64,000 nucleotides of DNA. Origin: a virus. Location of the stretch: positions 13,436 through 77,435 of IMG/VR virus record IMGVR_UViG_3300032053_000039. One strand, given 5' to 3'. The notes beneath the pieces were generated by a model. The model did no database searches, had not been told where the DNA came from, and saw nothing but the letters and a program-made list of their open reading frames with translations. Below are positions 2,069 to 38,954 of this stretch, in pieces. The translations under genes were made by a program, and so were the position numbers. Within the stretch, counting starts at the first letter, position 1. Each line of letters opens with the position of its first letter.

Positions 2069-3454
2069 TTACTTTATTTTAATATCCTTATATAACTCTC
2101 CTACGAATTGGGGATTTCCTTTAAAGAATTCTACCAGTTTATTCATACCTTGGAATGTCTCCCCTTTAGTTTTATAATAAGGACCTGCTCGCTCTATAAG
2201 ATTTTTTATAACTCCGAGAGATACTATCTCAGCAATATGATCTATTCCTATAGGGAAAGAAGTTCCCGGCCTGAAATAATAATCATAGGTGAACATGTCA
2301 CCAGGAGCATTAAGTTTGTTTTTATCAGCACGGATTCGTATTTTTTGACCATAGAAGTTGTCTTGAAATTTAGCTTCTGTTCCATCTTCCTTTAACCAGC
2401 ATTCTCTTTTCACTTCAATAATAGAAGCGCTATGATGCCCTACTGCATTTCCACCACTAAATGAATCAGGACCTGCGTGAAATGCTGTAAGGTTGGATCG
2501 TACCTGCGACAATATAAATAATGTTGGCTTGTATGCTTCTAATTCATCTTCCATATCGGTAGGTGCAAAAGAGGATACAACATACCGCATAAGCTTTCCA
2601 TTTGCTTTAGCCTCACTTCCCATATCAGCTTGACCTGCTTCTCTTTCTCGTATATAGCGAGGAACAGCTCCTTGAAGAGAATCCCAAACAACAATGTCAA
2701 CACCACGTTCCTTTATAATAGGTCTTAAAAGTTCTACACCTTCTTCAGTATCTTCTGGCTGCGCTACCATAAGCCTTTCTGGAATGATACCACAGGCTAT
2801 TAAATAATCCTGAGTTGCCATTTGTATCACTTCCTGTTCTTGTACAGTAAGCTTCTTGACCCATTTCTCTTTTTCTTTTACCATCTTTTTTTCATCATCA
2901 GAAAGAGTAACTTTCTCTTTAAGATCTTCTATTTCTGCTACAATGGTGTTGTAATCAAGTTCATCAACTTCTCGTTCTCCATAATCAGTGGTTTGAATTA
3001 TTCTTTTCACTTTTATTATTCGAGGATCTTCCATTTGTAAATTATCTTCATAATCCACAAACAATACTTTTTTAGGTTCTGGTTTTTTACATTCACATAC
3101 AGGAATAAGAAGCATATATTTTAATATAGCAGTCCATCGATCTTCTATAGAAGCTTCATAAAACTCAGGAAGAACACCTCGGCACACTCTACAACATCTT
3201 TGAGCAAACGCAGTTGTTTGATTGATCAAAGCGTTCTTACCACTCGAACGCGATCCAAAAATCATTATTATTCTTTTGTATGCAAATCCTCCTCCGGTGA
3301 GTTCATCTACAGAAAAAGATCCGGAAAAATATCTTTTAAGATATACTGACTTGGCTTTATCCAAAGTCGTTATCTTATTTGTTTTATACTTTTTATTTAT
3401 CTCTAAAATACTGGCTGGTAATTCAAACATAAAATCCTCCCTTATTTTGTCCAT
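2069..3454 (-). CDS. recA: RecA/UvsX-like recombinase with two insertions
   Basis: SGSFSVDELTGGG, P-loop GSRSSGKN, FVDYE, VWDSL, SQVR, SGGNAV, KNKLNAP. Confidence 0.9.
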   Translation of the reverse strand: MDKIREDFMFELPASILEINKKYKTNKITTLDKAKSVYLKRYFSGSFSVDELTGGGFAYKRIIMIFGSRSSGKNALINQTTAFAQRCCRVCRGVLPEFYEASIEDRWTAILKYMLLIPVCECKKPEPKKVLFVDYEDNLQMEDPRIIKVKRIIQTTDYGEREVDELDYNTIVAEIEDLKEKVTLSDDEKKMVKEKEKWVKKLTVQEQEVIQMATQDYLIACGIIPERLMVAQPEDTEEGVELLRPIIKERGVDIVVWDSLQGAVPRYIREREAGQADMGSEAKANGKLMRYVVSSFAPTDMEDELEAYKPTLFILSQVRSNLTAFHAGPDSFSGGNAVGHHSASIIEVKRECWLKEDGTEAKFQDNFYGQKIRIRADKNKLNAPGDMFTYDYYFRPGTSFPIGIDHIAEIVSLGVIKNLIERAGPYYKTKGETFQGMNKLVEFFKGNPQFVGELYKDIKIK

Positions 3455-6400
3455 ACTTCTTGAATATCTACATCCACCTTAAGTGGCATGGTTACTTTTG
3501 GAATATTCTCGGTCATACATTTTACAAATACAGGAGATAACTCCTCTACATACTTATCAGGGCTTTCTATTAAGATACTATCATGAATAGTTCCTACAAG
3601 CATTGTTCTATACTGAGGATTTTTTTCTATCCACTCCTGACATCTTGAAATTCCCATAGCGGTTATATCATTAGCAGAGCTTTGAATTTTTGTGTTTGTT
3701 GCCTGCCGCAGAGCTTTTCCTTTTTCTATATCATTACTACTAAGTGCTTTTGAAAGATATCTTTTTCTTCCATAAAGAGTTTCTACATATCCGTACTGCT
3801 GAACGAATATTTCGTTATCATGTATAAATTTTTTAACATTTGGATAGGTACTGAAGAATTTATTCATAAAGTTAAGCGCAGCTATCTCTGTTATTCCTAA
3901 ATCTTCTGCAAGAGATCGAGCCTGTAGACCAAAAATTATTCCAAAATTTATTGCTTTCGCTGAAGATCTTAATTTCTCATGTTCTGGTTTTTTCTTATCA
4001 AAAGAATCAAAAGGTACTCCAAACATTACACATGCAGTATAAGTATGAAAATCATGTCCGGATGCAAAAGCTTTTATCATACTAGTATCATCAGACATCA
4101 TTGCAAGAACACGAAGCTCTATCTGTGAATTATGACTTACAAACCCATTTGCTATGTAGCTGTGTGTTTCTTCTACTTCTATATCATATGTCTCAGCAGG
4201 GCTTATTTTTTTTATATTAGATATTTTACAATATACTTGGTTCCATTCTGATATTTTGTGTAATCCAAGATCTTTATATATTTCAGGGTAGTCTTTTTTT
4301 ATGAGATCAGAAGTATACTTGGATACAGATCCTTTCCTATTTCTAGTATTTTTTAATAAATTTATATTAGTATACTTTTTTGATTTATTTGTTAAATTAG
4401 GATGATTTCCATAAACAGGACTTGCATCAGAACTTTTAAGTATACTTAATAATTTTAATTTTTTTCTTTTACTAATAAATCCTATTTTTTCATAGAATAC
4501 TTTAGTCCAATGAGACTTTATATCAAGTATATATACTGTAAATTTATATCCCCGAATTTCATGGTTTTGTTTTCTCTTTTTAGCTATAATTCCTAAAGAT
4601 AATAATAATAAATGAACATCGTCTATTAATGATTCCTCAACAGAGGAACATCGAATTCTATCATCAACAGATCCATCAGTTTCAAAATATCCACGAAGCC
4701 AGGAAGATATTAAATCCTCGTTGGATTGAAAAAGAAAAGAAGGAACCCGTTTTTTAGATATACCCAAATTATTAAATACTTTTATTAAGGGCTTTGAATT
4801 AAAATTCATTGCAACAGCACCACGTCTCTCTTTGCATATACTACAAGATTCTCCAAATTGCTTGTGTAGTATATTCTCTATGTAATTTATAACATCTTTA
4901 TCTTTAACACAAATGTGCCATTGTATTGTTGTCTTTCGACAATTGCTTTCAAGAGTTGTACCATTACCACTAAGGACTCCAAAAAACTCACATAAAGAAT
5001 TATTTATAAAATTAGGATATTTTTTTAATATTTTATTACTAGCATGTGTATATTCTATTTTTGGCAAAGGTATCTTGTTTTTATTGTTTAAATGAAAGGG
5101 TTGTAATGCTATAAAATCATTTTCAAAATCTAAATTTTTTAAATTTTTCCAAACATAATTTCCATGAATATCTATAACACGAATTCTATGAAGATCTGTC
5201 ATTTTTATTTTATATCCTAGCTCCGTTGTAACCTCATATACTTCCTTAACACCTTGTTTAAAGACATTTAGTACTTTTTTTAGAGATCCATCCTCTTGAA
5301 TAACTTTTTCATTTTTTTTTAAATATTGTATTTCCTTAAGTCCTGTTTCTGTAGCAACTAGGGTATCTCCAACAAGGCATTGGTCCAAGCAAATAAGTTT
5401 ATTACCTCTTTCAGCACGAACCATATTTCTTATTTTATTATCTCTAGGTATTGTATGAAGAAAGCAGCTTGCTCTTCCTGTTGCTGTTAACTGATAATAA
5501 CTCGGGTGTACCCTATGAGTAAGTTTGTCTGCTTTATTCATAAAGCCCACTAAATATGTAGAGTTCTGTTTTGACAAAGTTCTGTATTCTAATATACTTT
5601 TCAATATCGGTTTTTGATTACTAAAGAATGTTATTGCTTCTTCATCTCCTGCAGGATTTCTACCCTTTTTAGTAACATAGTTTTTATTAGGCTCAAGACC
5701 TAAAACATTGTACATTAGGTTACTTATCTCTTTTGAAGAGTTAAGATTTAACTCGTATCCAACTTTATTAAATATCTTAATTTTTATCTTTTCGATCTCT
5801 TCTTTGTTTTGACGAGCTACCTTATCCATATATTTAAAGTCTAATCGTATTCCATTCAGAGTCATGTGTATTAAAGAATAGCAGTATTTCATAATAATAT
5901 TATAAAACACATCTCGATATTCTGAATCTATCTTAGGCTTCATTATCTTATAAAGTCTATAGGTAATATCAGAATCCATCGCTGAGTAATATTGCAAAGG
6001 AGTAAGATTTAATTCTTTTAACTTTTCTTTTCTTTTAGTTTCTATTTGGGTTCTTAATCCAAGAAGATACTTATCATATTCTGTAATAACCCCTTTTTCA
6101 GAAGATTCAAAATCATCTGGATTCCATAATTGCCCTTGTACTTCTACAGCATCTTCTTTAGCCTGATATTTTCCTATTCCTCCGAAAGATGCGAGGATGT
6201 CTTTATATCCTCCTTCGTTGGTCATTATCCAGGATAAAGTTTCCAGCTTATAAAGAGAATTTCCAACATCTCCTTCCGAACTCATATTTAAAGTATGGTA
6301 CGCTAACATTGTATCAAACAAAACTCCATTTACTTTGAATCCTAATTGCATAAGAAAACTCAAATCAAAGGAGATATTATGGCCAACTTTTTCATTATTG

Positions 6401-13114: not shown

Positions 13115-13771
13115 CTATTGTTCTATTAAAATTGGAGAGTCATGATCTCCCTTATTTATTATTATCAGCTTAAGAGCACTGCTATTAATATCTCTACCAA
13201 GATCATATCCTGCCGATTGTTGGATTTTTCCTGAACCGAAGCCACCAAAACAATATTTTATGAGTTTTCCTTCAGACAGAAATTCATATTCATACCATGA
13301 TTTTTTCTCAGGATTTTCAAATTGATAGAATCGACTATCAGAATCGTATTTTCCTATATTGTAAAATACATCTAGAGCCTGTTCCTCAAGTTTCTTTCCT
13401 GGTTCTACACCGGCATTAACAACATAGATAAAATCATTAATTTTTATAATTAAAGGAAGTTCCTCTAGGTAGTTTATAAGATAATTACTATCTTTTTCTA
13501 GCCAGTTAGGAATGTTATCTTCAGTACAAGCATCAAACTCTCTTTTTCCTTTAACCGAATAAGTATTATGACAATTGGCTAAAAAATAGAGACAATCTAA
13601 GGATTTATCATTATCAAGATCGATATTATTCCCAGTTGTTACAAGAGTATCATCCTTATTAAATCCTTGATTATATAACAAATTAACAAGAGATTCATAA
13701 TCTCCCCTAATATCTCCAACGACAAAATACCTTTTAGTATTTAGAACCGATAGGTCTAAGACAAAATCCAT
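13115..13771 (-). CDS. Calcineurin-like (PPP/ApaH-type) metallophosphoesterase homolog, catalytically degenerate
   Basis: GDIRG, GNNID, GKRE, NAG and GGF in place of GDIHG, GDxxD, GNHE, HAG and GHT. Confidence 0.75.
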   Translation of the reverse strand: MDFVLDLSVLNTKRYFVVGDIRGDYESLVNLLYNQGFNKDDTLVTTGNNIDLDNDKSLDCLYFLANCHNTYSVKGKREFDACTEDNIPNWLEKDSNYLINYLEELPLIIKINDFIYVVNAGVEPGKKLEEQALDVFYNIGKYDSDSRFYQFENPEKKSWYEYEFLSEGKLIKYCFGGFGSGKIQQSAGYDLGRDINSSALKLIIINKGDHDSPILIEQ

Positions 13772-15490: not shown

Positions 15491-18400
15491 TTATCCGCAT
15501 TTAGAATACCCACATCCAATATCTGAACATTTGAGACAACCCTCAGAAAATCTTAATTTTGATCCACAGGTAGGACAAACTTCTTGAGCATCCAATCCAT
15601 CCTCTACATATTTTTTGAGTGTTCGAGCGAGGACTTTAGCAAAATGGGTTACATCACCTTCTGCCTTATTAAGCATTATAAGAACTTCATCCAGAGGAAC
15701 TCCTGATTGTAAATGCAAAGAGATGGATCGAGCAAAAGCATCATGCTCTTTATTATAAAAGGATTTCCCTATATTGTTTATAAGAACTTCGTCATCATAT
15801 TCAAAAGAATAATGTTTTGTTCCTTGCCTTTTAATAAATCCATCTTCTATTTTCTTAGGAATACAAACATCATCAACTGCTCCAGCAAACATTTCAAATG
15901 GTTTACCTTCCATAAGACTTACAAAAACAATCCATTTATGACCTTGATACATAACTCTGTGAATCTCGCAAGGAAGGGTAGGAGGCCTTTTTGGGATAGC
16001 TCTATAGACGATACCCTCTATTTTATCTTTTTTATCAGAATCGTGAATGAGTATTCCTTCTCTACATCCATCCCGATAGACAGTAACTCCAATAATTCCC
16101 CTTTTATGAGCATCTAAAAACACACCAGCTACATCTTCCTTAGTAGCATTACTAGGTAAATTAATAGTTTTACTTGCTGATAACGAAACATTAACTGCGG
16201 TAGCTTCTAAAATGCTTAGGTGTTCCATAGGTGTTAAATCTCCTGCGGTTAAAAATACTTTCTTCATATCATCTGGTATATCTTTACATTTCTGGCATGA
16301 GCCTTTATTTTCAGAAACCTCCTTAAGTATCTTTTGTTTTATTTTATCATCAAAATTATCAATGAGATATTTTTCAAATACAGAATCTCCAATACAAACA
16401 ACATCATATTGTTTTACTCCCTCTTTTATACCAGTTTCTATTTTACGTGAATAAGATAAAGCAAAGACGGGTTCGATTCCTCCAGATACTTCGGCGATGT
16501 ATGCAATACTTCCAGTTGGTGCTATAGAAGTGCAGCAACTATTTCTAATTCCGTGTTTTTTAATATCACTTCTAAGTTCTTCTATATTAATATTTCTACA
16601 GGATTTGTGTTTAAAAAATCTTTCGTTAGCCTTTATAAAAAGATCATAGTCAAACGCTTCATAGGATCCTTCTATTTTAGATAATTCTACAGATTCTTGC
16701 ATAGACCTTAAAGTAAGATAACGAATAACCTCTTCAGTAAATTTAAAAGCTTTATCAGAGTTATATGGTATTTCTTTTTTATAGAGAGCATGAGCAAGAC
16801 CCATAACACCAAGACCAATTGGTCGTGTTTTTAATGTAACTTCTTTTATTTTTTTTATAGGAAACTTATTTTTATCAATAGTGCTATTTATAAATCGAGT
16901 TGCTTTTACTATTATTTCTTCGAATTCATCCCAATTAAATTTTTTACCTTCAACTAAAGATGATAAGTTTATAGAACCAAGGGCGCAACTTGTATATGGA
17001 ATATTGGTAAATTCTGAGCAATTCGAGCATACAACATATTCTATACACTTTTTATTTTTTTTATTTAAATACTCTCTTCCGCCTATTAAAAAATTGTGTG
17101 TTTCCTCAACAGTACCATCGTATACATCTTCTTTACCAATATATTTTATTGATATTATTTTATGATTATAAGAATCCCCAATAGCTTTTTTTAATTCAAA
17201 TTTATGTTTATAATTTTTAATATTTTTTTCTGCTAAATATATTAAATCTTTAGCAAATCTTACTTTATTTATATTATCTTTCAAATAAGAAAGAGACGGA
17301 CAAAAAATATTATTATTCCGAATAACAGTTCTTGCTCCTTTATACTCTTTACCGAAATTAAGATAAGTATTACCAAGTTTTTTATAGGCTCTAAACATCT
17401 CTAAAGTTAATTTTAATCTTCTTTTGGTATTTGGATGGTCCAAATACTTTTTTGAAAATTTAGAATTTTCAAACATAAAAGGTTTTTGTATTTCTTTAAC
17501 ACAACAATAATGAGAACAAAATGTTATTTGCCTTCTATCATAGTCTACAATGAATTCCTTTCCACAATATTCACATTTTTTATATATTATAAAATTTAAA
17601 GATTTTTTATCAAATTTAAATATTTGTTCTCCGGACACCAGATTATTATACTGTTTCAAAAGTTTATTATATGTTATAGATTCTATATATTTAACTTTAG
17701 CAAGATCACAATATTCTTTAGGATTACTATATCTATATTTATTTCCTTTATTATTGGTATTTAAGAGAGGAAGATTTAAACTCTTCCACATTTGAAGAGT
17801 AAAGAAATTGTAAAGAGTATTTTTAGAGTATTTTTTTATTAACCTAACAATTTCTTCATTTGATATATTTTTAGAATTACTGTTTTTTAAACCTTGGTTT
17901 AATTCTCTTTGTTTTCTAATCCAGGAATCTCTATCTTTAATTTTAAATACTGGATTGTTTTTACCAAGTTTATCCTTTCCATGTAATTGGTCATGAGTTT
18001 TATAATCCATTATTTGTAAATTTTCTGGTCTGTTGTCTAGAGAGTCATAATTAATATGATGAACAACTTCTCCCTCAGAAAGTAATTTACCTGAAAAATA
18101 TGCTGCAATAAGTCTATGTTCTGATTTTGTAATTCCATTGGTGGTAATAGTACAATATTCTTTTTTCTTAGAAACGGATTTACTATAATTTTTTATTATG
18201 GATTTTATACTACTTCCTTTTTTTAAATCTTTTAATGGAACCATAACACCAGAGGTAGTTAAGAATTCATGATTATTTGTGCATTTTATAATCAAGCCAC
18301 TATCAAAAGAAACTTCATAAATATCAGCGTTTTTTTGTGTGAGTCTGGGATTTAAAAATTTCTTAATTCTCAAATCTCCTTGTTTATCTAAAGTATATAC

Positions 18401-20590
18401 AGGAACATCTTTTTCTTCATCTACTAGTTGCTTAATAGAAATAGAACCTCTTCCATCTGCGACTGCTATGAGAGTATCCCCTGTTATACATGGATTTGAG
18501 ATTACAGTTTTATTGATATTAGTAACAGTACACTGCCTATAAGCTATATCCATATTAAAAATTCCTGGTTCTGCGACCGACCAGGCATTTTCTACAATAG
18601 CATCCCACAACTGTTTTATTGTTACCATCTCCCCTTCTGAATCTAACAAAGCCATTGTGGCTCCATCTGTAACATTTTTTATAGTGTGAGGAATCTCTGG
18701 ATTTTCTTCCAAGTCTTTATAAAAGCTATCAGGAATCATTACAGAAAAATTAAGTCTATTGAATTTACTCAAATTCTTTTTTGCTTCTATAAATTCTAGT
18801 ATAGACGGATGATCTATTGTAAGGAGACCCATCGCAGCACCCCTGCGACTATTGTGAGTAACAATCCCATTAGCTATGTAAGAATGAACGTCTTCCACAT
18901 TTATATCATAGGTTTCATTTTCTCCAGTATCTTCTATTTTTACTACTTTACTAAAAAAGTAATCTCCAACTTCAGGAATAAGATTAAAAGCAAATTCTTT
19001 TTTCTCTTTTAAGTGCTGGTATGAAGATATACTAAAATTTCTTTCATTCCTAAAATATCTTTTTATCTCTTTTTTTAGTTTTTTATGACTTTCTGGTTTA
19101 TAATGATTTTTGTCTATTTCTTCTAAAACTTTAGAAAACCAATACCGAGGAAAGGGAAGAACATAGCTTTTTTCTCGAGTTAGATCACATTTCCAATTTT
19201 TACATTCCATGAAACGTGATTTTTCATCACAGCTTATAATCTTTTTCCAATTTTCTAATCCTACGTAAGATAGTATTTTTAAACTATGTATAAATTCTTC
19301 TTTGCTGAAACAATTTTTCCCATGTTTAGTTAAAAAAATACTATTTGGGCAACCCAGTTCAAATAAAATAGCAGATACTTCTTTTATGAGAACAAAAGAT
19401 GATGAGTTTAATTGAGGGTATCCATGACTAACTGAACCATCTGATTCAAAAAGACCTCTTAAATACATTCCTTTTATCGAAATAGGACTTTTTCTAATTA
19501 ATAAAGGAATTGACGCAGTATTACTTTTGCTTTTATTTAATTTATTTAAAATGAGAAATTCCTTTAATTTTTTATTCGATATAGTGATATTTACACAATC
19601 ACCTTTCCCTCTTTGAGTATAAAAAGATATATCTCCAAATACTTTTTTCAATTTTTTAGGAAAGTCTTCTACCAAATAACTTTTGAGGGGAATGGTAAAA
19701 ACAATTCTATAATCTTTTTCTTTTGATGCTACAGATCCATTTCCTGTAAGATATCCAAGAATAAATGCAAAATCTTCTGTTATTTCTTTAGGTAAGCTAA
19801 TATCATTTTCATTAAAATGATTATATCTAGACTCATCTAATTGTTGTAATTTTTGAATTACTCCATTTCCTGATTTTAATTTGATTACAGCAAAGTCTCC
19901 TTTTTTAACATCTTGAAGCTCTTTCCAAATGAATCCATTTTCTGAAAATATTTTTATTTTATGATTATATGTCCCTTCAAGCTCTATTCCTTCTTCTGTT
20001 ATAATTTTTAATGTGCTCGCAATACCGTTACAGTAAAATCCTTTAGAGTCTTTAATACCATTTTCGGTGTCTATTTTTATACTATGATCATGCCAACCAT
20101 AATCTCTATTGCTTATTATTTCATCTAAATATAATAAGCCTTCTTGAGTAGAGATAAGAGATCTTCCTATGAGACATCCTGACTGATTAACACCATCAAG
20201 CATTTCATTAAATATTGCTATAAAAGGGAGAGGTCCTGAGCTGGTTCTACCATTAAGGGTTTTAATTTCTTCTTTTGATCCTCGTAACCTAAAGTATGGA
20301 ATTCCTATTCCACCTCCCATCTTTGTAACAATAGCACATTCTTTTAATGATTCAAATATTCCCTCAATACTATCTTCTATATCCATAGGGAAGCACGAAC
20401 TAAGAGTTCCCACTCTTTCATTAGTCCCTCCGTTCATCAAAGTCGGAGATGAAGGAATAAATTTCATTTGTTCTAGGTATGGATAGATATCAGGATATAT
20501 TTTTGAGATTCGCTTAGCTAATTCCTCCCAGGTATTTTCACTTGATAGAAAATATCTATCTCTAAGCAATTTTACAATAGATTCATTCAT
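15491..20590 (-). CDS. nrdJ: Class II (B12-dependent) ribonucleotide reductase with two inteins
   Basis: PSSPTLMN, LSSCF, QSG|SRRGA, NP|CSE, CALGSINL, SIAPTG, GVTVYRDG; C-terminal TSCPD-like region and CPTCG..EGCLKC..CGYSKC. Confidence 0.93.
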   Translation of the reverse strand: MNESIVKLLRDRYFLSSENTWEELAKRISKIYPDIYPYLEQMKFIPSSPTLMNGGTNERVGTLSSCFPMDIEDSIEGIFESLKECAIVTKMGGGIGIPYFRLRGSKEEIKTLNGRTSSGPLPFIAIFNEMLDGVNQSGCLIGRSLISTQEGLLYLDEIISNRDYGWHDHSIKIDTENGIKDSKGFYCNGIASTLKIITEEGIELEGTYNHKIKIFSENGFIWKELQDVKKGDFAVIKLKSGNGVIQKLQQLDESRYNHFNENDISLPKEITEDFAFILGYLTGNGSVASKEKDYRIVFTIPLKSYLVEDFPKKLKKVFGDISFYTQRGKGDCVNITISNKKLKEFLILNKLNKSKSNTASIPLLIRKSPISIKGMYLRGLFESDGSVSHGYPQLNSSSFVLIKEVSAILFELGCPNSIFLTKHGKNCFSKEEFIHSLKILSYVGLENWKKIISCDEKSRFMECKNWKCDLTREKSYVLPFPRYWFSKVLEEIDKNHYKPESHKKLKKEIKRYFRNERNFSISSYQHLKEKKEFAFNLIPEVGDYFFSKVVKIEDTGENETYDINVEDVHSYIANGIVTHNSRRGAAMGLLTIDHPSILEFIEAKKNLSKFNRLNFSVMIPDSFYKDLEENPEIPHTIKNVTDGATMALLDSEGEMVTIKQLWDAIVENAWSVAEPGIFNMDIAYRQCTVTNINKTVISNPCITGDTLIAVADGRGSISIKQLVDEEKDVPVYTLDKQGDLRIKKFLNPRLTQKNADIYEVSFDSGLIIKCTNNHEFLTTSGVMVPLKDLKKGSSIKSIIKNYSKSVSKKKEYCTITTNGITKSEHRLIAAYFSGKLLSEGEVVHHINYDSLDNRPENLQIMDYKTHDQLHGKDKLGKNNPVFKIKDRDSWIRKQRELNQGLKNSNSKNISNEEIVRLIKKYSKNTLYNFFTLQMWKSLNLPLLNTNNKGNKYRYSNPKEYCDLAKVKYIESITYNKLLKQYNNLVSGEQIFKFDKKSLNFIIYKKCEYCGKEFIVDYDRRQITFCSHYCCVKEIQKPFMFENSKFSKKYLDHPNTKRRLKLTLEMFRAYKKLGNTYLNFGKEYKGARTVIRNNNIFCPSLSYLKDNINKVRFAKDLIYLAEKNIKNYKHKFELKKAIGDSYNHKIISIKYIGKEDVYDGTVEETHNFLIGGREYLNKKNKKCIEYVVCSNCSEFTNIPYTSCALGSINLSSLVEGKKFNWDEFEEIIVKATRFINSTIDKNKFPIKKIKEVTLKTRPIGLGVMGLAHALYKKEIPYNSDKAFKFTEEVIRYLTLRSMQESVELSKIEGSYEAFDYDLFIKANERFFKHKSCRNINIEELRSDIKKHGIRNSCCTSIAPTGSIAYIAEVSGGIEPVFALSYSRKIETGIKEGVKQYDVVCIGDSVFEKYLIDNFDDKIKQKILKEVSENKGSCQKCKDIPDDMKKVFLTAGDLTPMEHLSILEATAVNVSLSASKTINLPSNATKEDVAGVFLDAHKRGIIGVTVYRDGCREGILIHDSDKKDKIEGIVYRAIPKRPPTLPCEIHRVMYQGHKWIVFVSLMEGKPFEMFAGAVDDVCIPKKIEDGFIKRQGTKHYSFEYDDEVLINNIGKSFYNKEHDAFARSISLHLQSGVPLDEVLIMLNKAEGDVTHFAKVLARTLKKYVEDGLDAQEVCPTCGSKLRFSEGCLKCSDIGCGYSKCG
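17021..18490 (-). mobile_element. HNH-type intein at the RNR active-site NPC motif (490 aa)
   Basis: CITGDT..., CTNNHEF, EHRL...VHHINYDSLDNRPENL, ...VCSN|C. Confidence 0.92.
18851..20176 (-). mobile_element. LAGLIDADG-type intein in RNR (442 aa)
   Basis: CLIGRS..., GTYNH, YLRGLFESDG, ...VTHN|S. Confidence 0.93.
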
Positions 20591-33553: not shown

Positions 33554-34672
33554 TTATTTATCCTTATTTATCTCTGCATAAGATTCAATACGTTTAATAC
33601 CACAGCTTATAATCTTTTCTTTATCTAGATCTGTTTTATAATTATTAACATAATCCCTAAATATATCATAACTGCTTTTTCTTGTATTTATAAAAATACT
33701 GTCAGAACCTGTATTTTCTTTTTTATCTCTCTTTTTAATACTTCCAATAAGGCATTCTCGATCTTTAAAGAATTTATATATTTCTGTAATATTTAATTTT
33801 TCTTCAAATAAATGATCTATAAAAATAACGGATCCTAGTAATATTCTTGATGATTTAAAAAATTCTAGAGGATCTATTCCATCTGGTACAGAGTATCTTA
33901 AAAACTTTCTTATTCCTGGTATTTCTTCAAAGTAAGAATTTCCATCTTTATCTATAAGGCAAAATCCTTTTTTAAGTCCTATGTCTGTAGCATCCATATA
34001 GGATGTTGATCCAGGGTAGATAACAGATACATTTCCTTTTACATAATTTTGGGCTGTGTGGATATGACCTAGAAGAAATAAAAACTTTCTATCTTTAAAT
34101 ACATCTGCATCAAGAAGATAAACTCCCCGAGACAGCATTCGGCTTTCAGATCCTATACGGCTAGAATACTCTTGAATATGTGATACGATCATAGTTCTGT
34201 CTCTTGCAGAAGAGATGGCCATCTCAAGTTCTTGATTGACAAAGGCATCCTTATCCTTAAGACTTTTATTTGGGACATACGGTATAAATTTAACATTCCA
34301 ATCGTACCAATTAAAATTGTGGTTTTCTTCGTAGATAAACTTTATATTTTTAAGTTTCAGTTTACTTCCAAAAATCATTCCATGATGGTACATAGAAGTA
34401 TCATGATTTCCTGTAATAATATATACGGGTTTATTCAAAGAATCCATATTAAAAAGCCATTCTGCCAAAAATTGAACATTCGGTGGGGTAGGATGGTTTG
34501 TATGAGTCATATCTCCACCAAAGATTATAGTATTAATATCATCCTTTTTACCTCTTTCAAATATATAATCAAGAGCCTTCATAGCATCAAGTTCTGCTGA
34601 ATATATTCCGTTAGAGTCCTGAATTGAATGAGATCTTAATCCTAGATGAATATCACTGAAAAAAAGTATCAT
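33554..34672 (-). CDS. SbcD/Mre11 (gp47-like) nuclease
   Basis: SDIHLG, GGD, GNHD, SH, GHIH, YPGS. Confidence 0.92.
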   Translation of the reverse strand: MILFFSDIHLGLRSHSIQDSNGIYSAELDAMKALDYIFERGKKDDINTIIFGGDMTHTNHPTPPNVQFLAEWLFNMDSLNKPVYIITGNHDTSMYHHGMIFGSKLKLKNIKFIYEENHNFNWYDWNVKFIPYVPNKSLKDKDAFVNQELEMAISSARDRTMIVSHIQEYSSRIGSESRMLSRGVYLLDADVFKDRKFLFLLGHIHTAQNYVKGNVSVIYPGSTSYMDATDIGLKKGFCLIDKDGNSYFEEIPGIRKFLRYSVPDGIDPLEFFKSSRILLGSVIFIDHLFEEKLNITEIYKFFKDRECLIGSIKKRDKKENTGSDSIFINTRKSSYDIFRDYVNNYKTDLDKEKIISCGIKRIESYAEINKDK

Positions 34673-35697
34673 TTAATTTTCTCCCTTATTTCAAGTTTCT
34701 CCAGTATTTCAAGGTTAATTATATCTAATCCCTTAAGTATCCCTGATTTTGAAGAATTAAGAACGTATCTATGTGATACTTTAATCAAAGATAAGAGGAG
34801 CATAGCATAGTAACTAAATAATTTAGAGGTATAATAATCATTTTCTGTGTGAGGATCAAAGTACTTAAGTTCTTTTTTTACTTCATATTTTATAACTTCT
34901 TTTTTAGAAATTCCTAAGGCACGAGCTCTTCTTTCAAGATAGTCCTTACAATAATATTTTTTATGAGTATATGCTAGATCGTATCCTGATAAAATAATAC
35001 AACTAGGATCAAGAAGAACCGATATTATAAACATTGCATTTCCGACCCATCCGTTATTTTGGACATAAGGGTACTTTCTTGTCTTCCATGTCATTTTCTT
35101 TAGTACTAAATTTTTATATCGAATAGTATCTGATTGATTAAAAAATAATATTTTTCCTTTCCAGGCTTTTAGTGCTTCGGGGTTTAGTGTCGAAGATGCA
35201 ACTAGTATTAAATCAGAAGTATCTAGATCATGCCAAAAGAATTTAATTAGTATTGATGGATCTAAAGATACTACAAGATTTGGTTTTATTTTATTTTTTA
35301 GACAATTATAAAGAACGGCATCTTGACAGATTATATAAAAATTGTGGGTCATTTTTTTAATAACCTTTATATCTTTATCAAGAGAAGGTCCATCTGCAAG
35401 AAGAATAACTGGTATGTTTCTTGATAATCTTTTCTTTAAGATTTCCAAAGAATCAACCCTTGTTGTTATTTTAAATATTCCTAATTTTAAATTTTCTGTG
35501 TAATTATCTCTCCATGTTTTTATAAAAGGATCTTTCTTTACCAATTCTATTTCTTTGGGTATTGATCTTATTTCTTTTATACAGGAATAAATTAATTTTA
35601 TACATTTTAATAAATAAAAAATAAAATTTATTCCAAACAGCTTAAGATACTTTATAGTTTTTTTGAAATATCTTTCCAATCTATTAAAGAACCACAT
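34669..35697 (-). CDS. Maf/DUF115 (MptE-like) family protein, putative glycosyltransferase
   Basis: ILLADGPSLDKDI, IICQDAV, VVSLDP, ILSGYDLAY. Confidence 0.7.
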   Translation of the reverse strand: MWFFNRLERYFKKTIKYLKLFGINFIFYLLKCIKLIYSCIKEIRSIPKEIELVKKDPFIKTWRDNYTENLKLGIFKITTRVDSLEILKKRLSRNIPVILLADGPSLDKDIKVIKKMTHNFYIICQDAVLYNCLKNKIKPNLVVSLDPSILIKFFWHDLDTSDLILVASSTLNPEALKAWKGKILFFNQSDTIRYKNLVLKKMTWKTRKYPYVQNNGWVGNAMFIISVLLDPSCIILSGYDLAYTHKKYYCKDYLERRARALGISKKEVIKYEVKKELKYFDPHTENDYYTSKLFSYYAMLLLSLIKVSHRYVLNSSKSGILKGLDIINLEILEKLEIREKIK

Positions 35698-36158
35698 TTA
35701 GAACACTCCATAGTCCAAGCATCAATGATATTACTGCAGCTACATGTATAATCCCAATTTAGATATTCTGTACCCATACCCTCTCTAACTTTCTTATATT
35801 TCGTAGGTGTAGCTAATTTAATTTCTTTTTTATCGGAAGAAAGACCTGGCTTTTTTATTTGTTTTAAATTTTCTACAACAGCATTAAAATATTTTAACGA
35901 ATGCGTTTTAACTAATCCTTTTTCCCAATCTTCTTTAAAATATTTTACACATTCTACAAGTCTATCTTTACCTACTTTTTCTACCAACATTGATATATTT
36001 GTTATCTTGTCCTGTTTCGTTATTTTTTTCTCTGCACCTTCTCTTTTAAATTTAGTATAATCGAAAAATGAATTATAAAATCTACAAACAATATCTCCAT
36101 CTTCCCTTCCAAATGTTTTATGACAAAACTCTCTAAATCCTTCGAATACCTCTCTCAT
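35652..36158 (-). CDS. Paralog of the replication initiator C-terminal domain with zinc ribbon
   Basis: KYF...YTCSC...CSKCGSLIDW versus the initiator's KYF...YVCKC...CSVCGTEVDY. Confidence 0.6.
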   Translation of the reverse strand: MREVFEGFREFCHKTFGREDGDIVCRFYNSFFDYTKFKREGAEKKITKQDKITNISMLVEKVGKDRLVECVKYFKEDWEKGLVKTHSLKYFNAVVENLKQIKKPGLSSDKKEIKLATPTKYKKVREGMGTEYLNWDYTCSCSNIIDAWTMECSKCGSLIDWKDISKKL

Positions 36159-37342
36159 GAATAAATCCTCTCACCTTCTTGTGTTACTAAATAGTCTACC
36201 TCCGTTCCACACACAGAACAGAATCTTAAATCATCATGAAGTTGTGTTTTATGACCACATTTACAAACATATACATAATTATCTTCAACAGGTTCTAAAT
36301 GAGATGTGTCTTCAGGTACATTTCTTAGCAGGGCCTCTAGAAAATACTTAGGGGTTATCTTTCTTGAACAGATTCCAAGTGCAATGCTTCCTTCGATGGT
36401 TTCTATAGCTTCAAGTACTTTACTCAAAGTGAATCTATTTATCCAAGTTTCTAAAGATTCTAATCGAATAATATTTTTTTCAATTTTAGATTGTTTCCCG
36501 TACACCTCTATCCGTTGTAAAATATTAATTATCCTGTTGCTATTCTTAATTAAATCATTATAATATATAGGTATACATCCATTGTTTTTATCTATTAAAA
36601 ATTGAATAAGTCCCGCCGAGGTCAATTCTTTTAAACTTTCCTGAGTCCTTTCTTCTCTTAACTCTTCTAAGGAGTTCTCTTTCTCCCCCTCTTCTCTTTT
36701 AGGAATTCCTAAAGAGTTATCTTCCTGATGTTTTTTTTCTTCCCCAAAAAAAAGATCTGTAGTAATCTCTGTAGTATTCTCTGTAGTAATCTTTGTATAT
36801 GTATTACAGATTTCCGTAGGAGGGTCATACGGATTTCCGTATGAGGGTGGTACAGATTCTCGTAGGGGGGTGGTACGGATTTTTGTATGACCCCCCTTTT
36901 CGATATGATTATAAGTTATTTCAGTTATTCTTTCAACATTAGGTTCTACAAACATTACATTATAGAGCATTGTGTTTTTTACAAGTACTTGTCTAAATTC
37001 TACAGAAATAAGATTTAAACGTACTAATGTCTCAAATGAATCACGGACTTGCCTTTTGCTAGATCCAGTTAATTCAGCGTAATCACTATAGCTTTTCTGA
37101 AGTTTATCAGAATTGAATTTTTTTGATATTGATGCGATATCATCGGTTTGAGGATCTCTTGTGGTTGTAGGAGTATACCAATATCTAATATTGGCTAGTA
37201 TATACGCAGCTAAGAAATCAGTAACTTTTTTTCCTTTAGTTGTTGTATATGTAATTGCTTTTAACCAAGAAGGAGGTAGAATATCACCGGATATATTTAA
37301 TTTTCCAATAGCATCTACAGTAGGTGTTGTATTTTTTATCAT
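36155..37342 (-). CDS. Phage replication initiator (lambda O/DnaD-like architecture) with internal iterons
   Basis: N-terminal winged helix (ILANIRYWY...LQKSYSDYAE), linker with iterons, TKITTENTTEITT signature, C-terminal helical domain plus zinc ribbon. Confidence 0.8.
   Translation of the reverse strand: MIKNTTPTVDAIGKLNISGDILPPSWLKAITYTTTKGKKVTDFLAAYILANIRYWYTPTTTRDPQTDDIASISKKFNSDKLQKSYSDYAELTGSSKRQVRDSFETLVRLNLISVEFRQVLVKNTMLYNVMFVEPNVERITEITYNHIEKGGHTKIRTTPLRESVPPSYGNPYDPPTEICNTYTKITTENTTEITTDLFFGEEKKHQEDNSLGIPKREEGEKENSLEELREERTQESLKELTSAGLIQFLIDKNNGCIPIYYNDLIKNSNRIINILQRIEVYGKQSKIEKNIIRLESLETWINRFTLSKVLEAIETIEGSIALGICSRKITPKYFLEALLRNVPEDTSHLEPVEDNYVYVCKCGHKTQLHDDLRFCSVCGTEVDYLVTQEGERIYS
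36805..36896. repeat. Four 23-bp direct repeats (iterons); putative origin of replication
   Basis: Copies start at 36805, 36828, 36851 and 36874; core TAC(A/G)GATT(T/C)(C/T)(C/T)GTA is palindromic (TACGGA-TT-TCCGTA). Confidence 0.8.
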
Positions 37343-37533
37343 GAGTTCCTCTCGAGTTCATATGTTATATTTTTTATTTTTTCAGGGTTTGGTTTAACAA
37401 ACATCACATTATAGAGTACTCCTCCTTTAATTTTTATATTTTTAAATTCTAATTTTACAATATCTAGAGATTCTAACGTATTAAATGATTCTCGAATTTG
37501 CTTTTTACTGAAATTTAATAATGAGGACAGGAT
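37339..37533 (-). other. Truncated paralog of the initiator winged-helix region (leader ORF or pseudogene; no canonical start near the 5' end)
   Basis: ILSSLLNFSKKQIRESFNTLESLDIVKLEFKNIKIKGGVLYNVMFVKPNPEKIKNITYELERNS* aligns to the initiator's SKRQVRDSFETL...LYNVMFVEPNVERITEITY; ATGA overlap with the initiator start. Confidence 0.7.
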
Positions 37534-37538
37534 AAAAT

Positions 37539-37634
37539 AAAAAACCTCCAGAAAGTACCACCTGTTTCCAGGTTCTGCTCGGTATTTCTGAAGGTTGAGG
37601 GCTATTACACCCTTAGATATGAGCAGAAAAACCT
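37539..37634 (-). ncRNA. Putative c4/CI-like antisense-attenuator RNA upstream of the initiator
   Basis: Stem AACCTTCAGAAATACC/GGTACTTTCTGGAGGTT enclosing GAGCAGA and ACCTG-GAAA-CAGGT, followed by a U tract; upstream complementary TTCTGCTC. Confidence 0.55.
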
Positions 37635-37985
37635 AAGAGTACAATAACGATATTACAAATTGTGAAATTTTATGTTTCTTATTCTTAAATACTAAAATAA
37701 GAGCTGTTTCGTCGGAATATTATAGATAGAGCGGTTTTAATTTTGGGTTCGATTCTGTTTTAGTCATTATTTAATCTAATATGGTTCATCTATCTATGTT
37801 TTATATAGCAGGACGCTATTTTATAATAAATATCTGTCAATAGAATTTTTTTAAGTCCCCTGAAAAATATTCAGGAATGAACTTAAACTTACCTTTTCAG
37901 GTTAAAATTTTAATCAAATTTCATATAATTATATTAAACGCAATTATACATTTAATCAACATTTAATAAATACGAGGTTCTTATC

Positions 37986-38954
37986 ATGGCAGAAGTAGTG
38001 AAAATAAATTCTAAAAAGGGTCTGGTTTCACTTACCCAGAAAGATATAGCCGAAAACGACTTGGCTTCCTGGTTGAGAACAAACTCTAAAGGTTTCGGTC
38101 ATTATTCTTTTATTAATCAACAACCCTTTGAAAGGGTAGCAGCAAAACTTTTTGTGGATAAATATCCTTCTACACATGTGAAGATAGCAGAAAGTATTGT
38201 ATGTACAAAAGAAGGAGGTGTTGATGTATTTCTTAAAATCACAGATGATCAATCTCGAGGATTTTATAACACTCATCCCACAAAGCTTGTATTCAATAAA
38301 GGAAAACAAACCGTTATTGATGATATCACAAAACATGGATCAGAAGAAGGAGTTTTGGATGTTATAGAGGATGATGACTTGAAAGAAGACTTCGAAGATA
38401 ATTCTTCTGATTATGAAGAATCTGCGGATGAGGAATTCTATGGTGAGATTGAAAATTTTCTTAGTGAAATAAAAAGTCTTTCTGAAGAAGATCTTATTAA
38501 AAAAGTATCTCCAGAAGAACTTGAAGAGATAAGTAAAATGTTAGATCTTGATAATAAATCAGAATACGAAGAAGACGAAGATTCTGAAAAGGAAGATTTG
38601 AAGGATGAAGATTTGGATGATATAGATATTGATTTAGAAGAAGAGGGAGACGAGAAAGAAGATGAAGAGGAAGAAGACGATTATGAGTATGAGGACGAAG
38701 AGGAGATTGGTGAGGATGAAAACGAGAAGGAAGATGATGATAATGACAACAATGATATCGAATTTGAGGAAGGCTTTATCGAATCTAAAGGGGATGATGG
38801 GATTCTTAAAGAAGTTAATCTCGAGGATTTCTCTGAAGATAAAGGGCCTGAAATAATTGAGATAGAAGGAAAGATTCCAGAAGAAAAAGGATCAATCGAA
38901 AAAGTTCCCTCTGATAAAATTCTCAGAGATTTAATAAAAGAAATTTTGGGGTAA
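37986..38954 (+). CDS. Highly acidic hypothetical virion-associated protein
   Basis: D/E-rich C-terminal half; first gene of the plus-strand head module. Confidence 0.65.
   Translation: MAEVVKINSKKGLVSLTQKDIAENDLASWLRTNSKGFGHYSFINQQPFERVAAKLFVDKYPSTHVKIAESIVCTKEGGVDVFLKITDDQSRGFYNTHPTKLVFNKGKQTVIDDITKHGSEEGVLDVIEDDDLKEDFEDNSSDYEESADEEFYGEIENFLSEIKSLSEEDLIKKVSPEELEEISKMLDLDNKSEYEEDEDSEKEDLKDEDLDDIDIDLEEEGDEKEDEEEEDDYEYEDEEEIGEDENEKEDDDNDNNDIEFEEGFIESKGDDGILKEVNLEDFSEDKGPEIIEIEGKIPEEKGSIEKVPSDKILRDLIKEILG

Follow-up and report, generated by a model that had tools for sequence, protein, structure and literature searches.

The short pi proteins of plasmid R6K are shortened forms of an initiator, produced by translation from start codons within the initiator gene itself. 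In phage lambda, four 18-bp iterons and an AT-rich stretch lie inside the O gene (PMC3349717), and the Odn protein of phage ICP1 borrows the origin-binding domain of a satellite RepA, fused to a nuclease, and targets the satellite origin (PMC8263062). We analyzed a replication locus in a 64,000-nucleotide (nt) stretch of viral DNA (positions 13,436 to 77,435 of the IMG/VR record IMGVR_UViG_3300032053_000039), referred to here as the window, whose coordinates are used throughout; features lie on the minus strand unless stated otherwise. The locus encodes a replication initiator, Rep, preceded by a partial copy of its N-terminal domain and followed by a 168-amino-acid (aa) protein, P0003, that resembles its C-terminal domain. 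The evidence described below makes it quite probable that this is a replication module of the lambda O type, carried by an uncultured sediment phage, in which one accessory paralog is decaying and one partner domain is unnamed.

The rep gene (36155-37342) encodes a 395-aa product (P0001) that was assigned as a replication initiator from PHROG and profile matches, including phrog_270, "replication initiation protein" (E 2.3e-10), and phrog_678, "O-like" (E 4.8e-6). Residues 1 to 170 of Rep are about 35% identical to the initiators of Bacillus and Acinetobacter phages, and residues 6 to 197 were matched by profile-profile comparison (hhalign) to Bacillus proteins annotated as DnaD with 100% probability. 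No match of Rep to Pfam Phage_rep_O (PF04492) was found at E values up to 1, and searches of PDB sequences with the Rep and P0003 profiles returned nothing meaningful. Rep appears to be O-type in its working, outside the Pfam Phage_rep_O family. Homology and an AlphaFold2 (AF2) model of the paralog P0144, described below, identify residues 1 to 144 (36911-37342) as a predicted winged-helix origin-binding domain, and residues 283 to 384 (36191-36496) make up a C-domain consisting of a helical part and a CxC...CxxC zinc ribbon, which has a profile match to the P0003 family. The gene has its own ribosome-binding site, GAGAGGAA. A first-pass annotation, made from the sequence alone, had described a full initiator with iterons and ATGA overlaps at both of its junctions, and all of these are present, the overlaps being at 37339-37342 and 36155-36158. 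Some Acinetobacter phage records (e.g., NC_041857.1, 24714-25187) carry the match to the Rep N-domain under two annotations, replication initiation protein and HNH endonuclease.

Related loci were obtained from a metagenome scan and comprised L003, whose Rep is 85% identical to that of the window, and L004, whose Rep is 51% identical; IMG/VR scans with Rep and with a Rep alignment found no relative. Synteny was assessed from these two loci and from public contigs aligned to the region, namely X12 (1835 nt), which comes from a different study and was assembled from a freshwater-sediment run, and X8, X10, and X11, which are contigs from three other sediment runs. When the window was compared to L003, the ratio of nonsynonymous to synonymous substitution rates (dN/dS) along Rep was 0.45 for the N-domain, approximately 1.2 for the iteron-coding linker (residues 145 to 200; 36743-36910), and 0.08 for the C-domain. 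Constraint thus seems to act on the linker at the DNA level and on the C-domain at the protein level.

The putative origin lies within this linker. Four 23-nt iterons (36805-36897), each with an internal TACGGAAATCCGTA-like dyad, are located just after the N-domain, and 12-nt, ACAGAGATTACT-like repeats (36755-36797; chance expectation, 0.06) encode a TEITTENTTEITT linker peptide. Equivalent arrays are present in both relatives, with four 23-nt units in L003 and seven to eight 22-nt units in L004, and the iteron sequences vary between relatives; the overall pattern suggests that the iteron sites and the N-domain co-evolve. Rep residues 181 to 195, which are encoded by the 12-nt repeats, read TKITTENTTEITT, and a near-identical TNTEITTENTT is conserved in the initiators of Bacillus prophages, whose overall identity is only about 35%. 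Across these very distant hosts, what is conserved would be either the DNA of the repeats or the peptide that it encodes. The iteron dyad was also considered as a possible leader operator, but with up to two mismatches allowed, no further copy of it was found in the window. A strong sigma-70-like site (TTGAAA, 17 nt, TATAAT; 11 of 12 positions) was noted inside rep at 36908-36936, just upstream of the iterons. It matched at 9 of 12 positions in L003 and was not found in L004, and it could drive transcription into the origin or be due to chance.

Upstream of rep, a frame is open from stop to stop between 37632 and 37339 (97 codons with no stops or frameshifts), and its last 64 codons match Rep residues 81 to 144 at 45% identity (BLASTP, E 7e-17). 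The first-pass annotation had proposed a reading frame from 37533 to 37339 that matched the winged-helix region of the initiator, and while the match held, the start did not, since the codon at 37533 is ATC. No in-frame ATG, GTG, or TTG occurs before an NVMFV motif near the end of the frame, and the window frame has no ribosome-binding site. At the same position, L003 carries an intact, ATG-initiated 137-aa open reading frame (ORF), P0144, that aligns to the entire Rep N-domain (40% identity, E 1e-29). Two more intact versions, P0145 and P0146, are each 143 aa long, and the window sequence is almost identical to their C-terminal halves, including a YELER tail that runs into the rep start. The intact gene has its own ribosome-binding site, start, and stop, and it ends exactly at the boundary between the N-domain and the iterons. 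In the DNA alignment with L003, the window lacks 263 nt that hold an AAAGGA ribosome-binding site, the ATG, and approximately 85 codons, with flanks that are 85 to 99% identical, and X12 has 271 extra letters between 37522 and 37532. The deletion junction therefore falls at 37523-37531, where relatives have approximately 265 to 271 additional bases, and the sequence at 37339-37522 is the remaining 3' 40% of a stand-alone paralog of the Rep N-domain, a pseudogene in the window genome.

The junction was spanned by X8, X10, and X11 with zero differences. Because these contigs come from three other sediment runs, the deletion is a real natural variant and not an assembly error. The exact window stretch, in its deleted form, was present in at least 10 sediment metagenome runs. 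The remnant differs from the X12 sequence at 4 of approximately 184 nt and the adjacent rep at 19 of 239 nt, and the near-identity of the remnant to this intact allele is the reason that the deletion looks recent. In its AF2 model (pLDDT 91.4), P0144 adopts a winged-helix fold preceded by an N-terminal extension, and the model gave weak winged-helix matches in the PDB to 5kbj, 4pql, and 2v79 (E 0.02 to 0.1), which include a plasmid Rep-DNA complex and a DnaD N-domain. When mapped on this model, the remnant covers no more than the recognition helix, the beta-wing, and the final helix, and helices 1 and 2 are lost. Compared to the intact ortholog, the upstream fragment has thus lost its start codon, its ribosome-binding site, and essential parts of its fold. 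Judged from these sequences, the upstream piece in the window genome is a freshly broken accessory gene and not a working stand-alone domain, a case of ordinary gene decay.

We considered whether the truncated frame could still be functional, either as a short peptide or as a frame translationally coupled to rep through the ATGA overlap, or whether the deletion could be adaptive by placing rep directly under the leader terminator described below. The 97 open codons and the retained ATGA overlap would fit such a function, as would the occurrence of the deleted form in at least 10 sediment runs and a GGAGG located 11 nt before the ATC at 37533. However, that GGAGG belongs to the stem of the terminator, as its 3' arm, the frame has no canonical start, helices 1 and 2 and the N-terminal part of the winged-helix fold are missing, and rep has a ribosome-binding site of its own. 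The open frame is also explained by a recent deletion, given its near-identity to the intact allele, and we therefore find a function for the truncated frame hardly credible.

The relationship of the paralog to the resident initiator was examined in a tree of 81 N-domains. The three paralogs formed one clade with a long stem (0.78), nested inside a well-supported clade (SH-aLRT 99) that contains the resident Reps of this phage group. This position suggests that the paralog arose by partial duplication, or by exchange among close kin, and then evolved rapidly. A recent duplication of the resident rep was ruled out as the source of the fragment, because its identity to the resident Rep (45%) does not exceed that to other members of the clade (40 to 51%). 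No full-length initiator close to the paralog was found by a word-index search, which is weak evidence for its absence. Between L003 and P0004, the Reps are 97% identical and the paralogs 74% identical. The dN/dS of the paralog, measured between the L003 and window alleles over their 52 shared codons, was 0.18, and the paralog was therefore under purifying selection while its alleles diverged. In L004, the leader is followed directly by rep, with no paralog. Loss or decay of the fragment in relatives was one part of what the first-pass annotation had named as refuting its proposal; the gene is absent from L004, and it is intact in L003 and in the contigs encoding P0145 and P0146, with the selection pattern given above. 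Because the N-domain gene is intact in some relatives, absent from another, and deleted in the window, it is best described as accessory and dispensable.

The gene for P0003 (35652-36158) overlaps the stop of rep by ATGA and encodes an apparent stand-alone paralog of the Rep C-terminal module. Homologs follow rep in both L003 (partial) and L004 (164 aa), and a dN/dS of 0.07 indicated strong purifying selection. An exhaustive HMMER search provided 64 representative relatives, with E values down to 8.5e-59, of which approximately 40 are free-standing proteins of 160 to 200 aa and approximately 18 form the C-terminal part of proteins of 440 to 630 aa. One close relative, P0007, is such a fusion: its N-domain is 56% identical to that of Rep, and its C terminus matches P0003 with an E value of 2e-22 over 160 residues. 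Eight of nine other long family members that were tested have N termini matching PHROG replication initiators, and one has Pfam Phage_rep_O above threshold. Since the fused N termini match varied initiator families, the module recurs on initiators with differing origin-binding domains. In an alignment of 30 members, C139, C141, C152, C155, and P118 are invariant and F27, Y28, F91, and W161 are nearly so, and the family is marked by FG..G..V..FYR and YF...(V)EN motifs in a helical domain, followed by the CxC...CxxC ribbon and DW.

These features also bear on a second proposal of the first-pass annotation, that a new cassette of rep and its origin landed in an older rep gene and split it, leaving the old N-domain upstream and the old C-domain, now the 168-aa ORF, downstream. 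The order of N-domain copy, rep, and C-domain copy is what such an insertion would leave, and the intact upstream gene stops exactly at the boundary between N-domain and iterons. In addition, the alleles of the paralog do not track those of rep (the remnant is approximately 98% identical to X12 and the adjacent rep approximately 92%), and their synonymous divergence (dS) is 0.57 versus 0.21 for rep, which shows recombination in the region. But L004 has the 168-aa gene and lacks the N-domain copy, and P0003 belongs to a widespread family of free-standing proteins of approximately 170 aa whose N termini align, which includes approximately 40 conserved residues that cannot be aligned to the Rep C-domain and which is under strong purifying selection. 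The upstream paralog, likewise, has its own ribosome-binding site, start, and stop at the N-domain boundary, and its clade branches, with a long stem, from within that of the resident Reps, which is the position that a partial duplication in this phage group should produce. The proposal was therefore set aside, and we consider a cassette insertion very unlikely.

The resemblance of P0003 to the Rep C-domain was compared at several levels. BLASTP of P0003 against Rep aligned the zinc ribbon only (E 0.029). By hhalign, Rep residues 283 to 384 matched P0003 residues 41 to 161 with 96.4% probability and an E value of 1.1e-9 over 99 columns, a score obtained with a shallow Rep profile, and these columns include, besides the zinc ribbon, a helical stretch with a shared YF...N motif. 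The likeness of the 168-aa ORF to the C-domain of the initiator, which had first been seen by eye in the sequence, was thus borne out by the profiles with that caveat. A second BLAST match paired P0003 residues 55 to 90 with the middle helical domain of P0007 (E 0.008). If the two proteins shared the zinc ribbon only, P0003 would be an unrelated neighbor of rep and not a paralog of its C-domain. The BLASTP result would be expected on those grounds, zinc ribbons are common and convergent, and the helical part is not represented by any family in Pfam or PHROG. The hhalign match, however, takes in approximately 65 helical positions with a YF...(E/L)N motif in common, and the P0007 match is to a helical domain, so that the sharing of the ribbon alone is unlikely; whatever the paralogy, the ORF is tied to replication by its repeated occurrence as a fusion with initiators.

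Searches for known relatives of the module outside this group gave little. Beyond zinc-ribbon matches, no Pfam or PHROG model was found for the P0003 family, a tblastn search with P0003 of 50,697 cultured phage records returned no homolog, and the ESM Atlas returned unnamed viral clusters only. Neither the Rep C-domain nor P0003 had a Pfam match to the DnaD C-terminal domain (PF07261), and when the DnaD-type relatives from Bacillus were compared with the P0003 family by hhalign, the probability was 0.3%. The AF2 model of P0003 (pLDDT 87.9) was aligned by VIA-align to 2zc2_B at rank 10 (Z 4.0, rmsd 3.1, 66 residues), which is within the noise range for helical models.

Several points weigh against the reading of the locus as an O-like module with a decaying paralog and a partner domain. 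The query profile for the Rep C-domain was built from 4 sequences (Neff 1.7), and the zinc ribbon contributes part of the score that links it to P0003. Among solved folds, no clear match was obtained for the P0003 model: the best Foldseek hit in the PDB had an E value of 0.56, a wide VIA-align comparison with the PDB reached a best Z of 5.6, which is helical noise, and the best match in BFVD had an E value of 0.03 and was to zinc-ribbon proteins only, with no assignable fold. We infer a recruiting role for the P0003-type module only from its place in fused initiators. The DNA-level comparison as a whole draws on only three related loci. For the upstream gene, the dN/dS value is an estimate from 52 codons only, and the remnant, compared to the intact gene, is still open, has a single substitution inside the domain, and keeps its overlap with rep, so that translation from a rare start (ATC at 37533, or CTG) might in a formal sense still occur.

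Taken together, the above-described results are consistent with the following scheme for the O-like module. The winged-helix N-domain of Rep would bind the iterons that lie in its own gene, and its C-terminal helical and zinc-ribbon module would recruit the replication machinery. Between the structured leader and rep, the module in this phage group includes a stand-alone copy of the N-domain of 137 to 143 aa, which is intact in some relatives and absent from the distant one, and from which, in the window, a recent deletion of approximately 265 nt has removed the ribosome-binding site, the start, and approximately 85 codons, leaving a remnant that is presumably non-functional. As for the 168-aa copy of the C-module, it most likely acts alongside Rep at the origin, as a partner or adaptor, a role that fits with its gene being intact and conserved and with its fusion to the initiator in other phages. 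The first-pass annotation had proposed that the stand-alone domains act as regulators or adaptors of origin firing. This does not apply to the 5'-deleted remnant in the window, and it agrees with what was found for the downstream ORF.

The idea of a regulator may still apply to the intact N-domain genes of the relatives (P0144, P0145, and P0146), whose product, an optional and rapidly evolving origin-binding domain that stands alone, may influence how far the iterons are occupied. A more elaborate version can be offered tentatively, although we regard it as doubtful: that relatives with the intact gene (L003 and the P0145 and P0146 contigs) possess a three-gene initiator system, in which the N-domain copy competes with or tunes Rep at the iterons as a copy-control factor or as an exclusion factor against co-infecting kin, Rep carries the origin, and the C-module copy pairs with the Rep C-domain to recruit helicase. 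If this were true, the window would be a natural knock-out of the N-domain component.

The region ahead of the module also has conserved features. A structured leader had been recognized in the first-pass annotation, and it is present, with a minimum free energy of -45.4 kcal/mol (z = -3.4); the z value in L003 is -5.5. Its predicted fold has two hairpins. The first (37601-37648) has an 18-bp stem and a 12-nt loop containing UUCUGCUC, and the second (37532-37594) consists of a long hairpin (37594-37545) followed by a T-run (37544-37532) and resembles an intrinsic terminator. In the comparison of the window with L003, the leader is the best-conserved part of the region; hairpin 1 is nearly identical, and differences in hairpin 2 in L003 and X12 preserve pairing (U-G to U-A and A-U to G-U). 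L004 has two hairpins of differing sequence at the equivalent place, one with an 18-bp stem. The hairpin 1 loop sequence UUCUGCUC is complementary to a GAGCAGA(A) that hairpin 2 carries in its internal loop, and both are retained in L003; pairing of UUCUGCUC with GAGCAGA could act as a switch or bring the two loops into contact. By its appearance, the leader would serve the rep operon as a terminator or attenuator. An Rfam search of the whole window gave nothing at the gathering score, and Phe_leader was rejected as an identity for the leader, as its 23.6 bits (threshold, 55) were driven by the terminator shape. Further upstream, a promoter-like site for the leader and rep transcript (37813-37840; TTGACA, 16 nt, TAGCGT) was assigned by consensus match only. 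At the same position, L003 and L004 have TTGACA, 16 nt, TATTGT, and the site is conserved approximately 270 nt upstream.

The source record is 77.4 kb long, with a G+C content of approximately 30% and a CheckV completeness of 32%. The coding strand and the GC skew switch near 37,900, and the rep module is the start of the minus-strand arm. The genes 3' of the module encode an MptE-like protein (34669-35697; PF01973, E 1.4e-29), which follows the 168-aa gene here and also in L004, SbcD-like and SbcC-like nucleases, and an intein-bearing ribonucleotide reductase large subunit (15491-20590; 1699 aa) with intein splicing, LAGLIDADG, and HNH domains. The first ATG of the MptE-like gene overlaps the 168-aa gene by 46 nt, and the true start may lie further in. 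On the plus strand, the first gene of the divergent arm (37986-38954) encodes a conserved N-terminal part of 120 aa and a very acidic, D/E-rich tail; it matched nothing in Pfam or PHROG, and L004 has a conserved counterpart (2640-3533). No tRNA genes were found.

An initiator with an internal origin follows a textbook plan. The P0003 module is of wider interest: it has no Pfam or PHROG model, solved-fold match, or cultured-phage member, and it is found on many phage initiators with differing origin-binding domains and as a free gene beside initiators. This recurrence makes it a candidate new domain of phage replication, one that would recruit the helicase or serve as an adaptor. The natural variants of the locus, in which the N-domain gene is intact, deleted, or absent, provide a ready comparison that could reveal an effect of this kind of domain on origin firing or on the exclusion of related phages.

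Among described systems, lambda O and its origin share the plan of the window module, with an N-terminal origin-binding domain, intragenic iterons, and a C-terminal effector domain. The four 23-nt dyad iterons sit at the same place in the gene as those of lambda, and the PHROG "O-like" match is weak. In contrast to lambda O, Rep falls outside Pfam Phage_rep_O and its C-module is a helical and zinc-ribbon unit of an unnamed family, and the locus has extra 12-nt repeats and two flanking small paralogous genes that lambda does not have. Initiators annotated as DnaD in Bacillus cereus-group prophages and in Acinetobacter phages (phrog_270) belong to a common N-domain family with Rep (35 to 40% identity), and those of Bacillus also match the TNTEITTENTT linker encoded by the 12-nt repeats, but the C-domain of these initiators is DnaB_2/DnaD-like (PF07261), unlike the P0003 family. 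In the 56 cultured phage records that matched the Rep N-domain, none had a second copy of that domain and none had a P0003 homolog. The short pi proteins of R6K offer a likeness for the intact 137- to 143-aa gene, since a product with only the DNA-binding part could compete for iterons, as proposed above; the N-domain paralog differs in being a separate gene that is approximately 40% identical to Rep and is broken in the window genome. Odn is a precedent for a phage that carries an extra initiator origin-binding domain for a purpose other than initiation, but the N-domain paralog has no added domain, and its nearest kin are in the phage's own Rep clade. Compared to these systems, the layout of the locus is uncommon but not radically new.

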